This document shows positions 58,007-62,694 of a DNA stretch of 64,000 bases, in pieces. Source of the DNA: an uncultured Syntrophaceae bacterium (GTDB lineage: Bacteria > Desulfobacterota > Syntrophia > Syntrophales > UBA5619); assembly GCA_964433455.1 (NCBI GenBank), contig CAYSSF010000001.1, positions 610 to 64,609 on the forward strand. Reading direction: 5' to 3'. Position 1 is the first letter of the stretch; every line of letters begins with the position of its first letter. Both the position numbers and the translations under genes were made by a program. A model generated the notes under the pieces. That model was not told the origin of the DNA. It did not search any database and saw nothing but the letters and a program-made list of their open reading frames with translations.

Positions 58007-58498
58007 CTACTGGATCACGAAATCGGTAAAGTAGACCTTTGTCACTTTGCCCCGTTGAAGAATATTGTTGATCCGCCCTGCAACATCCTCACGGAGTCGT
58101 TGTTTGCCGGCCAGATCCGTGAGATCTTTTAATGTTTTTGGCGTCAGCAGGTCCAGGATGCTGTCGCGGATCCGCGGTTTGATCTGTTCGAGTTCAGACC
58201 CGACCGCCGGATCGGAAACCTCCAGTTGGATCACGATCTTAAGATACCTCTCCCCGTTGGTTTCGGCGATATTGACGACAAACGCGTCCATCGGCAAGAT
58301 GGACAATACCGCCGGGGTCACCGGCAAAGGTTTCTTGGGGTCCGCTTTGGTCATCAGGTAAAATCCGGCGACCGTTCCGGACAGAACGACTGCCAAAGCA
58401 ATCGAAACGATCAGGATCAACTTGATGTTGGATTTTTTCTTCGGCTCCGGAGTCTCCTCGTCTTTCACTTCCTCTTTATCTCTATTTTCTCTTGCCAT
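58007..58498 (-). CDS. fliL: Flagellar basal-body-associated protein FliL
   Basis: Single TM and a C-terminal 'KVTKVYFTDFVIQ'. Confidence 0.9.
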   Translation of the reverse strand: MARENRDKEEVKDEETPEPKKKSNIKLILIVSIALAVVLSGTVAGFYLMTKADPKKPLPVTPAVLSILPMDAFVVNIAETNGERYLKIVIQLEVSDPAVGSELEQIKPRIRDSILDLLTPKTLKDLTDLAGKQRLREDVAGRINNILQRGKVTKVYFTDFVIQ

Positions 58499-58505
58499 AG
58501 CTTCC

Positions 58506-59111
58506 TCACTTTAATGATACGATCAGGTTCACACGTCTGTTTTGCGCCCGGCCGTCCGAAGAGTCATTGGATGCAACGGGCCGCGAATCGGCATATCCCG
58601 CCGCTGACAGATCCTTGGGATCGATTCCGCATTCATCGACAAGGAATTTCAATACATTGACAGCCCTTTGGGCGGACAGTTCCCAGTTTGACGGGAAAGA
58701 GCCGTTGGCGACGGGAACGGAATCGGTATGTCCTTCGACCAGGATCGCTCCGGCCGCCGCTTTGAGTTTTTGGCCCACGCCCCTCAATAGATCATTGTGG
58801 AGGATCTCCGCCGATCCGGAGGGGTAGACCAGCGATTCGGGAAGGACGATGGAAACGCCCCCCGCTACCGGACGTGCTTCGATGCCATCTGCACGGCTCA
58901 GGGCCCGGATGAAAAGGGTCCGTCGATCTTCACTTTTCACGGAACCAAAGACTTCCGCGACGGCCGCCGATACATCCTGGACTTTGTCAACAGGGATGTC
59001 AGAGACGGAAACCAGCACGATAAAAAAGATCAACAGGACGGTCAGCAGATCGTTGAAGCTCATCTGCCAGGTTCTAACTTCGATTCCTGTTGTATGATTC
59101 GGTCTTCTCAT
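58506..59111 (-). CDS. motB: Stator protein MotB (canonical, with conserved Asp)
   Basis: 'WQMSFNDLLTVLLIFF' carries the channel Asp. OmpA-like C-terminus 'VEGHTDSVP...NWELSAQRA...NRRVNL'. Confidence 0.88.
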   Translation of the reverse strand: MRRPNHTTGIEVRTWQMSFNDLLTVLLIFFIVLVSVSDIPVDKVQDVSAAVAEVFGSVKSEDRRTLFIRALSRADGIEARPVAGGVSIVLPESLVYPSGSAEILHNDLLRGVGQKLKAAAGAILVEGHTDSVPVANGSFPSNWELSAQRAVNVLKFLVDECGIDPKDLSAAGYADSRPVASNDSSDGRAQNRRVNLIVSLK

Positions 59112-59743
59112 CGGGCTGCCCTGAAAAGAATTTCAATCCGCCTGTTCGTTTGTCGCCCTTCCGGCGTATCATTGTCTGCCGCCGGCCGATATTCGGCAAA
59201 GCCGATGGCCGCCAACCTTCCCGGAGGAATGCCGTTCTGTTGTAAATACCGCAGGATATTGACGGCCCGCATCGTGGAGAGCTCCCAGTTCGAAGGAAAT
59301 TTTGCCGTATGGATCGGGAGATTGTCCGTATGGCCCTCTACCTGGATCGATAAATCGTTCCGTTTCGCAATATTTATAATGCCGTCGAGCATGGGGTACA
59401 CCCCCTCGCCGAGAGAAGCGTCCCCGGAGGCGAAGAGAAGCGGGTTGGGAACAACCGCCTTGAAACCGTTTTGTGTTCGGACGACCGAAAATTCGTTGTT
59501 CAGTCCCCCATGGACACTCAATTTCGTCAGGGATTGCATTGCCTGGTTCATGTCCGGCGACGGTTGTGAAACCTCGGGCGTCAGGCTCACCACATTTTTA
59601 ATCTGCAGGAACCGTTCCTTGTCGATCACGGAGTAGGCGACCAGCATCACAAAGAGAACAAGGAGCAACAGCATCAGGGAACAGTAGATCGTTTGCCATT
59701 GCGGGATCGGTTGGGCTGCCGGTAACAGAGGTGGTCTATTCAT
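59108..59743 (-). CDS. MotB-like OmpA-domain protein lacking the channel Asp
   Basis: The TM region 'WQTIYCSLMLLLLVLF' has Ser where Asp is expected. The OmpA-like C-terminus is intact ('VEGHTDNLP...NWELSTMRA...NRRIEI'). Overlaps both neighbouring genes. Confidence 0.8.
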   Translation of the reverse strand: MNRPPLLPAAQPIPQWQTIYCSLMLLLLVLFVMLVAYSVIDKERFLQIKNVVSLTPEVSQPSPDMNQAMQSLTKLSVHGGLNNEFSVVRTQNGFKAVVPNPLLFASGDASLGEGVYPMLDGIINIAKRNDLSIQVEGHTDNLPIHTAKFPSNWELSTMRAVNILRYLQQNGIPPGRLAAIGFAEYRPAADNDTPEGRQTNRRIEILFRAAR

Positions 59744-60506
59744 GGTAGAATTGCGACCTTCTTTCCCGCGGGGGGATATAGGACTGGAGCTTTTGCTCCA
59801 CGACCCGCGGATTGTCCCCGGATTGAATGGAAAGGATGCCGTTGATGATCAGTTGCTTCAGCAACAGCTCCCTTGAACTTCTGGTCTTCAGCTTTCCGGC
59901 AATCGGAAGAAAAACGAGATTGGCCAGGATAACCCCGTAAAAAGTGGTAATCAGCGCAACCGCCATGGCCGGACCGATCGTCCCGGGATGGTCCATCTGC
60001 TTGAGCATCTGGACAAGACCGATCAATGTCCCGATCAGCCCCATAGCCGGAGCGAAGTTGCCCATGGTTGTAAATATTTCAGCGCCCAACCGGTGTCGTT
60101 CGCCGATGAAATCCAGTTCCGTTTCCATAATATCCGATACTTGAGCGGGTTCTACCCCATCAACCACCAGGTTGACCGCCTTGATCAGAAAGGGATCCTT
60201 GTTTTCTTTGATCATTTTCTGAAGAGACATGATTCCTTCCCGGCGGGACATCTTCGACATTTCAACAAGCTGACGGATCACAACGTCCGCCCTTTGTCCC
60301 TTGCTCCGGAAGGCGTTTTTTGCCACTTTGATCACGCCCAACAGGTCGGACAGCGGATAGTTGATCAAAACGGCGCCAAAGGTGCCTCCCAATACAATCA
60401 TCGCGGAGGGAGCGTCGACGAACCAGGCAAGCCCGCCACCGGACAGCATGGCAATGATGACAAGGCCGAATCCGCCGATAATCCCGATAATCGTTGCAAA
60501 ATCCAC
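59736..60506 (-). CDS. motA: Stator protein MotA/PomA
   Basis: 256 aa with 'PAMGLIGTLIGLVQML' and 'MAVALITTFYGVILANLVFLPIAGKL'. GTG start. Confidence 0.94.
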   Translation of the reverse strand: MDFATIIGIIGGFGLVIIAMLSGGGLAWFVDAPSAMIVLGGTFGAVLINYPLSDLLGVIKVAKNAFRSKGQRADVVIRQLVEMSKMSRREGIMSLQKMIKENKDPFLIKAVNLVVDGVEPAQVSDIMETELDFIGERHRLGAEIFTTMGNFAPAMGLIGTLIGLVQMLKQMDHPGTIGPAMAVALITTFYGVILANLVFLPIAGKLKTRSSRELLLKQLIINGILSIQSGDNPRVVEQKLQSYIPPRERRSQFYHE

Positions 60507-60674: not shown

Positions 60675-60923
60675 TCAAATCCATATGTCGATCCATCTCC
60701 CCTTGGTCTGAACGGACCCATCGGTGCGGATCGGATATGGGGTTTGTCGACGGAGCGTGGGTTGATCGCTGTCGGCGTGAATTTCTACATAATCGATGAT
60801 CTCCCCGGAGGCCCCGGGCGTGGGGACATGAAAGGAGCGCCGAGACGGCGTAACGGAGAGAGGAGCGTCCCCCGCCGTGATGACGGCAGGATAGAAGCTG
60901 TAATCGGAGTGTCGGATCTCCAT
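60675..60923 (-). CDS. Hypothetical 82-aa protein at the position usually occupied by flbD
   Basis: The only ORF in the 560-nt flgE-motA gap. It shows a weak FlbD-like pattern ('F.V...GEIIDYVE...D...TL...Y.IR') and GC-rich third codon positions. The composition is Pro/Arg-rich, so the call is low confidence. Confidence 0.33.
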   Translation of the reverse strand: MEIRHSDYSFYPAVITAGDAPLSVTPSRRSFHVPTPGASGEIIDYVEIHADSDQPTLRRQTPYPIRTDGSVQTKGRWIDIWI

Positions 60924-61065: not shown

Positions 61066-62694
61066 CTATCGCTTGATGTTCATAAGCTCCGTGAGCATCT
61101 GATCCGCGGTCGTGATGATGCGCGAACTGGCCTGATAGGCCCGCTGGGCCGTGATCATGTTGATGAACTCCTTGGCCACGTCCGTATTGGAGATTTCGAG
61201 CGAATGGTTCATGATTTCGCCCAGTCCGCTGGAACCGGCCTTGTTCGTGATCGCCTCTCCGGAGGCGCTGGTCGACCCGAAATAGTTTCCGATCTTTTTC
61301 AGACCGGAGGGGTCCCGAAAACTGGCCAGGATGAGTTGCCCCAACTTGGAGGTCTGGCCGTTCGTGAAGAAACCGTTGATGATGCCGTCGTTTTCAACAT
61401 TGATGCTCTGCAAGACGCCAAAGGTGTAGCCGTTGTCCGAGAGGGACTTGAGGACGGATGAACTGGCGTAGCCCGTGATCGTCTTGGCGGTGTCGCCAAC
61501 CAGATCCCAGTTGATCTTGTTTTTTGTCGTGTCCCCGATGCCCGAGGTCACGCCGATCGTAGATACTTCGCCATTGGGATTGTTGCTCAAGGCGCCAAAG
61601 GTCAGCGTCACATCTTGAGGCGCAACGTCTGTTTTTTTGACGTCGAAGGAAACGGTATTTCCGGCCGTCCATTGATTGCCGGTTGTTGCGCCCAGATCAA
61701 AGGCAATATCCGATCCGCCCTTGCCGTCCAGGTCCACTTTCAGGTATTCCTTGCCGCCGATCTCTTCCTGCCATGCGATGGCATGTTCGTAACCCCCGTT
61801 GGCGGTGACCGTCCAGACACCCGTAGGGGCTTCCTTCACCATGGAGAGGCTCGATGTGGAGTCCTTGAACAACTGTCCAGGTTTCGTGACAGTCTGTTTG
61901 TCGATGGTTCCGATGGTGGCGCCCGTCCCGATCGCCGAAGTCGCCGGGGCGGGTATGCTGCCTTTGTACATGCCGAGAAGCGCGCCGTTCTTATCGAAGG
62001 TCAACCCGCACGCCTGCTGTTCACTGATATCACTGAAGTTCTCGTCGTCGAGCTTCACGTCGAAGCCCCAAGTGCCGTTTCCCTCCGTCTTCAGGAAGGT
62101 GACGGAAAGGGCATGGAGTTGGCCCCTTGAATCAAAGACGTTCTGGGAGACGTTGAATTTTTCTCCATAGGGCGTATTTTCATCAAGGTTGGCGCCGAGG
62201 CTGATCTCCGTGGTCGCCTTGGCATTGGACATGGCGTTGTCAAAAGAGATGTCCTGCGGTTTCTCGACGCCCGTGTCCGTGCTGACCGTCAACGCGGCCT
62301 TGGAAGCGCTGAACCCCTGGACCTTGTAATTATTGCCGTCGACGAGGAGGCCTTCCTTGCTGATGTGAAAGGCGCCGGCCCGGGTGTAATAAGAGGCTTC
62401 GTTGGCGTCTTTGACCACGAAAAAGCCGTCGCCGTCGATCGCCAGATCCGTGGCATTCCCGGTGGTTTCAAAGGAACCCTGCGAGAACTGGGTTGCCACC
62501 GCGGCCACGGCGACGCCATCGCCGACGGCCATGGAACCCGCACTGGATAAACTTTGGTTCAACATGCTGGCAAAGTAGGTATTCCCGGCTTTGAAACCCA
62601 GCGTGTTGGAATTGGCGAGGTTGTTGCCGATCACGTCCATCTGTTTCGAACTCGCTGTCAGACCCGTGGTCCCGATTGATATTGCGCTTCCCAT
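61066..62694 (-). CDS. flgE: Flagellar hook protein FlgE
   Basis: 'IGNNLANSNTLGFKAG' and C-terminal 'MITAQRAYQASSRIITTADQML'. 542 aa. Confidence 0.95.
   Translation of the reverse strand: MGSAISIGTTGLTASSKQMDVIGNNLANSNTLGFKAGNTYFASMLNQSLSSAGSMAVGDGVAVAAVATQFSQGSFETTGNATDLAIDGDGFFVVKDANEASYYTRAGAFHISKEGLLVDGNNYKVQGFSASKAALTVSTDTGVEKPQDISFDNAMSNAKATTEISLGANLDENTPYGEKFNVSQNVFDSRGQLHALSVTFLKTEGNGTWGFDVKLDDENFSDISEQQACGLTFDKNGALLGMYKGSIPAPATSAIGTGATIGTIDKQTVTKPGQLFKDSTSSLSMVKEAPTGVWTVTANGGYEHAIAWQEEIGGKEYLKVDLDGKGGSDIAFDLGATTGNQWTAGNTVSFDVKKTDVAPQDVTLTFGALSNNPNGEVSTIGVTSGIGDTTKNKINWDLVGDTAKTITGYASSSVLKSLSDNGYTFGVLQSINVENDGIINGFFTNGQTSKLGQLILASFRDPSGLKKIGNYFGSTSASGEAITNKAGSSGLGEIMNHSLEISNTDVAKEFINMITAQRAYQASSRIITTADQMLTELMNIKR

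Follow-up and report, generated by a model that had tools for sequence, protein, structure and literature searches.

A conserved MotB paralogue without the membrane aspartate, encoded between motA and motB in uncultured Syntrophales- and Desulfobacterales-like bacteria

In a 64,000-nucleotide stretch of DNA from an uncultured Syntrophaceae bacterium (GenBank assembly GCA_964433455.1, contig CAYSSF010000001.1, positions 610 to 64,609 of the forward strand; the whole stretch is hereafter called the window), one motA gene is followed by two unlike motB genes. The first of these, here called motB', encodes a protein (B') with serine in place of the transmembrane (TM) aspartate that is invariant in MotB (D32 in Escherichia coli, D22 in Campylobacter jejuni); the second, motB, encodes a canonical partner (B). 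We show that B' is a MotB paralogue that fits the structural definition of MotB save for this one catalytic residue, and is better not called a MotB in the functional sense. It belongs to a large, old and conserved family, and is neither the peculiarity of one genome nor a decaying gene. The trio, with two unlike B subunits of which one has no ion-binding face, is conserved across Syntrophales- and Desulfobacterales-like lineages and is probably a stator module that has so far gone undescribed. On sequence grounds, motB' may well encode a dedicated second B subunit that forms with B a heterodimeric axle in the MotA pentamer (MotA5-B'1-B1), a reading that we prefer while stopping just short of calling it probable. 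The features on which the argument rests are the following.

motA, 59736..60506, minus strand: 256 amino acids (aa), GTG start; the sole A-subunit gene of the trio (Pfam MotA_ExbB, 105.6 bits).
motB', 59108..59743, minus strand: 211 aa; MotB paralogue without the TM Asp (Pfam MotB_plug and OmpA, alignments to Protein Data Bank (PDB) chains, 120 close homologues).
motB, 58506..59111, minus strand: 201 aa; canonical partner with Asp21 in an F-N-D motif (Pfam MotB_plug and OmpA).
motA/motB' overlap, 59736..59743, minus strand: 8 nucleotides (nt); motA stop at 59736-59738, B' ATG at 59741-59743.
motB'/motB overlap, 59108..59111, minus strand: 4 nt (ATGA); B' ends at 59108, motB ATG at 59109-59111.
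B' transmembrane helix, residues 16-38 (WQTIYCSLMLLLLVLFVMLVAYS), 59630..59698, minus strand: the most conserved B' segment; AlphaFold2 (AF2) models a helix at residues 15-52.
Ser22 codon TCC of motB', 59678..59680, minus strand: at the position of the catalytic MotB Asp.
Asp21 codon GAT of motB, 59049..59051, minus strand: read from the sequence and aligned to 6ysf.
B' OmpA-like peptidoglycan-binding domain, residues 103-201, 59141..59437, minus strand: Pfam OmpA, 68.8 bits.
fliL, 58007..58498, minus strand: directly downstream of motB (Pfam FliL, 90.6 bits).

Around the catalytic position B' reads WQTIYCSLMLLLL (W16-Q-T-I-Y-C-S22-L-M-L), and partner B reads WQMSFNDLLTVLL (W15-Q-M-S-F-N-D21-L-L-T). 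In a phmmer search against all PDB chains, residues 15-48 of B' (QWQTIYCSLMLLL...) aligned with the MotB proteins of Bacillus subtilis (SWLVPYADILTLLL; 6ysl) and Clostridium sporogenes (EWLATFSDTITLLL; 6ysf), and Ser22 stood opposite the Asp of both. A profile of 132 B' relatives aligned over its full length to the same two MotBs in the same register (E = 1e-52), and in partner B the Asp fell opposite the Asp of 6ysf. An earlier note, made from the letters of the window alone, had read Ser at the invariant position of the upstream protein and a canonical Asp stretch in the downstream one, and these HMMER alignments to solved structures agree with both. The note had also named another acidic residue in the membrane as a case against itself. 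Residues 16-38 of B' contain none, and the first acidic residue after Trp16 is Asp41, which lies outside the helix at a position where canonical MotBs also have Asp. Its further statement, that an Asp-less MotB cannot conduct ions, accords with the accepted model of alternating Asp residues (10.1101/2020.05.12.089201; 10.64898/2026.04.14.718414), and is strengthened by the fact that the whole polar stripe of the helix is lost, beyond the Asp alone.

The missing Asp is far beyond chance. Among the 120 closest database proteins (61-100% identity), QWQTIYCS is kept in all 97 that cover the segment; in the other 23 the called start lies within or beyond the TM helix, and most of these are forms of 186-189 aa that begin inside it. 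The codon for Ser22 varies among relatives (TCT, TCC, TCG, TCA) while the amino acid is constant, and the mean column conservation of B' across 11 relatives is 0.89 in the TM helix, 0.76 in the OmpA domain and 0.51 in the linker, the value for the helix equalling that of the partner B helix. As judged by this column conservation, purifying selection on B' is strongest at its TM helix. The family also reaches well beyond close relatives: many of the best 150 matches in an exhaustive HMMER search of 1.84 billion representative sequences are distant Asp-less MotB-like proteins (33-55% identity), and intact B' open reading frames (ORFs) are found in more than 250 sequences at 30-100% identity. At the Asp position (position 0), 250 Asp-less sequences carry Ser (234), Ala (11), Gly (3) or Asn (2), and the residue before it is mostly Cys, but also Thr, Ala or Ser. 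Position +3 is Thr or Ser in 79 of 83 canonical sequences and Leu in 235 of the 250 Asp-less ones. The group consensus changes from T(-3), D(0), T(+3) in canonical proteins to I, S, L in B', whereas the Trp, the aromatic residue at -2, LLL, FF, L and S-x-S are retained in register. On this alignment evidence, B' is a MotB with its polar ion-carrying face erased and its packing signature kept.

Outside the ion-carrying face, the B' protein is complete. Both B proteins exceed the Pfam cut-offs for MotB_plug (PF13677; B' 29.0 bits, B 36.7 bits, cut-off 24) and OmpA (PF00691; B' 68.8 bits, B 56.4 bits, cut-off 27.2), which upholds the single TM helix and intact OmpA-like domain that the earlier note had assigned to each. 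Belonging to the OmpA family is in itself uninformative for B', and is the basis of its database names. Its peptidoglycan-binding residues D140, R159, N200, R201 and R202 are invariant in the 132 relatives. The AF2 model of B' (mean predicted local distance difference test score, pLDDT, 82) has a long TM-plus-plug helix at residues 15-52, a second helix at 63-78 and the OmpA-like domain; its best Foldseek matches are the periplasmic domains of MotS, PomB and Desulfovibrio DVU_2228 (template-modelling score, TM-score, 0.84-0.91), and the MotS/PomB-like periplasmic fold is complete, N-terminal helix included. Hence B' has the TM helix and plug, the OmpA domain and the position directly after motA that mark a stator B subunit, and lacks the ion-binding Asp. 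The two B proteins of the window align with each other only in their OmpA parts (~43% identity). In NCBIfam the best match of B' is MotD (NF006541) at 146.9 bits against a cut-off of 283, which leaves B' outside that equivalog, and all flagellar MotB, MotS and MotD models among the 25 NCBIfam families listed score below cut-off for B' and for partner B alike. The solved Desulfovibrio structure 3khn (DVU_2228, 'putative MotB') was considered as a specific counterpart of B' and rejected, since it comprises the periplasmic domain only and is not specifically of the B' type.

The arrangement of the trio is constant. Approximately 25 B' loci had readable context (the window, 11 genome loci, L012, L013, L014, L016 and nine metagenome loci), from Syntrophales, Desulfobacterales and 'Deltaproteobacteria' bins, and all have motA upstream and an Asp-containing motB downstream, usually overlapping. 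The 11 genome loci, found in contigs of one genome per species and labelled Syntrophus, Syntrophaceae or 'Deltaproteobacteria' genome bins, show motA, B', B, fliL and fliM in this order without exception, with Ser in B' and Asp in B. A Desulfobacteraceae bin (GCA_004193555.1) and two megabase-scale assembled contigs show the same arrangement for more distant B' genes. A generic MotB pattern retrieved 80 metagenome loci, among which were three further Ser trios and six Gly trios of the form motA-B'(Gly)-B(Asp), one of the six being cut before motA. No locus among those examined has motA accompanied solely by an Asp-less B. In most trios, distant lineages included, motB' and motB overlap by 4 or 8 nt. 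In the window itself, the ORF coordinates agree with the order motA, motB-like, motB and with the overlaps of 8 and 4 nt described in the earlier note, and its suggestion that the genes are probably translationally coupled stands with them; conservation of the pair in relatives, which it had proposed as a check, is borne out by these loci.

The Gly trios make up a sub-family of B' of their own (L023, L025, L026, L035, L037 and L042; for example GWEIVYSGFILILLCFFIML), each member being followed by an F-N-D-type motB with a 4- or 8-nt overlap. A further match, 'WQVTYAAL' in L043, was discarded as chance, given that its frame is full of stops.

The partner proteins carry a signature of their own. 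Of 30 trio B proteins, 25 have the F-N-D motif, as opposed to 1 among 56 single B proteins, and this exception begins 44 nt away from the end of its contig. In a neighbour-joining tree of MotA, all Ser, Gly and Ala trios except L017 fall in one clade, with L027 (Asn) also outside it; in a tree built from periplasmic columns only, a single pure clade takes in 34 of the 42 Asp-less proteins and stands apart from the clade of their partners. A search of the MotA channel helices for trio-specific residues gave only seven discriminating positions, none in the presumed TM3/TM4 (boundaries read from the sequence), and these are confounded by phylogeny. The co-occurrence of the trio, the F-N-D signature of the partner and the MotA and B' clades together indicate that MotA, B' and B have long been inherited as a unit. 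The residue before the partner Asp is Asn, where ordinary MotBs have Ala, Gly or Ser; this Asn shares its membrane depth with Cys21 and Ser22 of B', and an inter-helix hydrogen bond may be possible.

Two loci depart from the main clade. In L017 (4197-6357), motA-B'(Ser, AGT codon)-B(Asp) lies beside dprA, topA and xerC with no flagellar genes or fliL nearby; its MotA does not belong to the main trio clade, and the neighbour-joining tree places its B' and B as sisters. The order is reversed in L027 (927-3044), where motA is followed by a canonical B (F-A-D) and then by a B paralogue that has Asn in place of the Asp (LLYANLMILLM). L017 and L027 may be independent inventions of an Asp-less second B.

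The helix signature kept under selection, the small neutral residue at position 0, and the coupling of its expression to a co-evolved B and one clade of MotA are what we would expect if B' sat with B inside the MotA ring. B' and B would be produced at similar levels and associate into a B':B heterodimer, which would form the axle inside the MotA pentamer, with both OmpA domains anchored to peptidoglycan. The coupling ion would be bound by the B chain alone, and in B' the small neutral Ser, Ala or Gly would mimic a permanently neutral or protonated Asp that the MotA ring could pass without an ion; a restriction of position 0 to small uncharged residues is what one would predict where MotA still has to pack against that face and travel past it. 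The cycle would then need a single ion for each 72 degrees where two would otherwise be used; alternatively, B' would supply an asymmetry for gating or anchoring. Taken to its full extent, this would mean a whole clade with naturally asymmetric MotA5-B'1-B1 stators, running on one ion per 72 degrees and thus at half the textbook ion cost per revolution, with the dummy chain kept small and neutral so that the ring slides past it, and having arisen perhaps more than once (L017, L027). We offer this wider version only tentatively and consider it rather doubtful.

Several points weigh against the heterodimeric axle. In the accepted model the MotA pentamer rotates around a MotB dimer and both Asp residues are used alternately (10.1101/2020.05.12.089201; 10.64898/2026.04.14.718414). 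With neither the Asp nor its polar neighbours, the B' chain cannot take its turn. In addition, E. coli MotB proteins mutated at D32 do not function and have a dominant-negative effect, so that a one-Asp unit may not turn. A comparison of TM side-chain volumes did not favour B'+B over B'2 or B2, and the linker lengths of B' and B correlate (r = 0.78), though not independently of relatedness. All trees are of the simple neighbour-joining kind and too crude to settle independent origins. All B' carriers come from uncultured organisms: cluster look-ups returned only Syntrophales, Desulfobacterales and 'Deltaproteobacteria' bin labels, and no isolate. On the other side, simulations of the stator in a 2026 preprint found rotational motion in every state with at least one neutral Asp and never sampled the doubly charged state (10.64898/2026.04.14.718414), which is compatible with a permanently neutral second chain and is no proof of net rotation.

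It is possible, if unlikely, that B' instead makes homodimeric MotA5B'2 units of its own, which would be ion-dead and either inert or regulatory; they might brake the motor, hold a place or compete with the active MotA5B2 units depending on load or conditions. B' has every feature needed for a seat in the MotA ring and for binding peptidoglycan, MotB normally homodimerises, and exchange between types of stator unit is a known form of motor tuning (PMC9039648). However, B' and B are co-transcribed and mostly translationally coupled, with no visible separate regulation, so that such units would poison their own motor constantly. They would also leave two things unexplained, namely the trio-specific F-N-D signature of partner B and the small uncharged position 0 of the inert subunit.

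We likewise regard as improbable a place for B' outside the MotA ring, as a membrane-anchored peptidoglycan-binding accessory that would serve as a scaffold or spacer around the stators or as a partner of FliL or of periplasmic MotB, in a role like that of MotY and the T-ring or of PflB-type proteins. OmpA-like motor accessories do exist, with MotY a weak match to B' (29 bits), and loss of the Asp is expected once a paralogue leaves the channel; yet a mere anchor would be free to drift, and it is the TM helix of B' that is best conserved, with the MotB register W..Y..L..LLL..FF..L..S.S kept. The position of fliL directly downstream of the trio would suit a FliL partner, but the L017 trio, with neither fliL nor flagellar neighbours, ties B' to motA and motB and not to fliL. 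Of the roles that the earlier note had listed (a structural or a regulatory subunit of the stator, a plug, a scaffold, a FliL partner), the obligate co-evolved pairing with an F-N-D-type MotB and one MotA clade, together with the best-conserved TM helix, points more to a ring subunit acting with B than to a free scaffold or a FliL partner.

Very improbable is a B' that itself carries the coupling ion, through another side chain (Cys21, Ser22) or a different ion chemistry, with both B chains active. In its favour, the close clade conserves Cys-Ser, Na+ could in principle be ligated by polar residues, and the MotA of the window is most similar to PomA and MotP. Across the family, however, the residue at position 0 varies among Ser, Ala and Gly and that at position -1 among Cys, Thr, Ala and Ser, so that no ionisable or ligating side chain is conserved; the Thr/Ser residues one turn above and below have become Leu and Ile, and the helix has no acidic residue. 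That motB' is a decaying duplicate or an annotation artefact without function, as its truncation to 188 aa by many gene callers and its bare database names might suggest, is refuted by the conservation data, given the intact ORFs, the invariant helix and peptidoglycan-binding residues, the synonymous codon turnover and the conserved synteny.

The trio belongs to a flagellar cluster on the minus strand at 53-63 kb of the window, in the order flgE, an 82-aa ORF, motA, motB', motB, fliL, fliM, fliN, fliO, fliP, fliQ, fliR and flhB. Two further features lie upstream of motA:

flgE, 61066-62694, minus strand: first of the genes listed for the flagellar cluster.
82-aa ORF, 60675-60923, minus strand: between flgE and motA.

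A Shine-Dalgarno-like AGAAGG is located ~13 nt upstream of the motB' ATG. The 82-aa ORF is called as a gene on three independent contigs and has no Pfam family on record; its position between flgE and motA is what we take to be the flbD slot of spirochaete and Bacillus-type clusters. The best NCBIfam matches of the window MotA are PomA (291 bits) and MotP (262 bits), both below cut-off. Because it scores best against these sodium-type proteins, the coupling ion of the window stator may be Na+ rather than H+. No second stator set was found within the window. L006 (37-894, minus strand) and L007 (10-867, minus strand) each contain another motA-like ORF, a divergent one, ~4 kb upstream of the trio and on the opposite strand; that of L006 is 24% identical to the window MotA, and these genomes may hold further stator sets. 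A contig identical to that of the window is recorded from a groundwater metagenome.

One variant of the trio differs in its last gene. In L014 (4298-6422; L015 is identical), motA is followed by a B' of 240 aa with Ala at the Asp position and then by a 473-aa ORF, P0128, in which two OmpA-like domains flank an Asp-bearing MotB TM helix; P0130 resembles it. The domain in front of the TM helix would have to lie in the cytoplasm, which implies either an odd topology or a gene call that merges two genes. P0128 and P0130 (430-470 aa) were considered as natural B'-B fusions and rejected: they combine an extra OmpA domain with an Asp-bearing MotB and provide no Rosetta-stone evidence. An arrangement of motA, 'OmpA family' and motB may also be present in Desulfovibrio vulgaris (DVU0048-0050); a literature search for these locus tags found nothing.

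Annotation practice hides the family. In many public gene calls the start of B' is placed at Met24, within the TM helix, which gives a protein of 188 aa (P0002, P0019, P0029 and others) and removes both the diagnostic motif and the MotB_plug Pfam match. Automated surveys would therefore class such entries as plain OmpA proteins. B' genes are now annotated only as 'OmpA family protein' or 'MotB', often truncated, and stator surveys consequently miscount them. In open-access papers and bioRxiv, including two recent surveys of stator diversity (one from 2025, on MotAB), we came across neither an Asp-less MotB paralogue nor a heteromeric flagellar stator, although either may have been described elsewhere.

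For the ion-driven rotary motors of 5:2 stoichiometry (MotAB, PomAB, ExbBD, TolQR and ZorAB), the current model has two equivalent Asp residues taking turns. A conserved stator in which one chain has neither the Asp nor its polar neighbours would be a direct test of whether that alternation is obligatory, and would also show how many ions are used per step and what the second chain contributes mechanically. If the B':B heterodimer is real, each chain could be labelled or mutated on its own, something that is ruled out with engineered homodimers. The syntrophs and sulfate reducers concerned subsist on very little energy, so that a changed ion cost per revolution could be adaptive.

Set against known systems, the trio shares much with the canonical MotA5MotB2 and PomA5PomB2 stators (C. 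sporogenes 6ysf, B. subtilis 6ysl, C. jejuni 6ykm, Vibrio 8bri). Like their B subunits, B' follows motA and has the same TM helix register, plug region and OmpA-like domain, and the downstream motB of the window is an ordinary Asp-bearing member. Canonical stators, in contrast, have one B gene, a homodimer and two equivalent, alternating Asp residues, whereas the trio has two unlike B genes, and in the product of one both the Asp and the polar residues around it are missing. MotY of the Vibrio T-ring (2zf8) resembles B' in having an OmpA-like peptidoglycan-binding domain at the stator region of the flagellar motor. The similarity is confined to the OmpA core (29 bits, residues 151-205) and leaves the TM helix and plug of B' unmatched, B' being a full-length MotB homologue. 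MotY is not known to have a TM helix or a plug region.

The closest likeness in gene order is the motA/motB1/motB2 operon of Aquifex aeolicus, where one motA likewise precedes two motB genes, in departure from the one or two complete sets that are usual (PMC4525482). The Asp-bearing TM helices of MotB1 and MotB2 are 97% identical, each is functional with MotA as a chimera, and it is the periplasmic regions that differ (PMC4525482). In the trio both periplasmic domains are canonical and the ion-carrying helix differs, so the trio is not of the Aquifex type. The closest likeness in composition is the AglR-AglQ-AglS gliding motor of Myxococcus, in which one MotA/TolQ-like protein works with two different MotB/TolR-like subunits (PMC9389320, PMC11761067). 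Unlike B', AglQ and AglS both keep the mid-membrane Asp (PMC9389320), have TolR-like periplasmic parts and serve gliding and not a flagellum, which sets the trio apart from the AglRQS type as well. Structure prediction nevertheless gave a robust model only for AglR5-AglQ1-AglS1, with a heterodimeric axle that is itself only predicted (PMC11761067), and this provides a precedent within the same superfamily for a B':B heterodimeric axle in the MotA ring.

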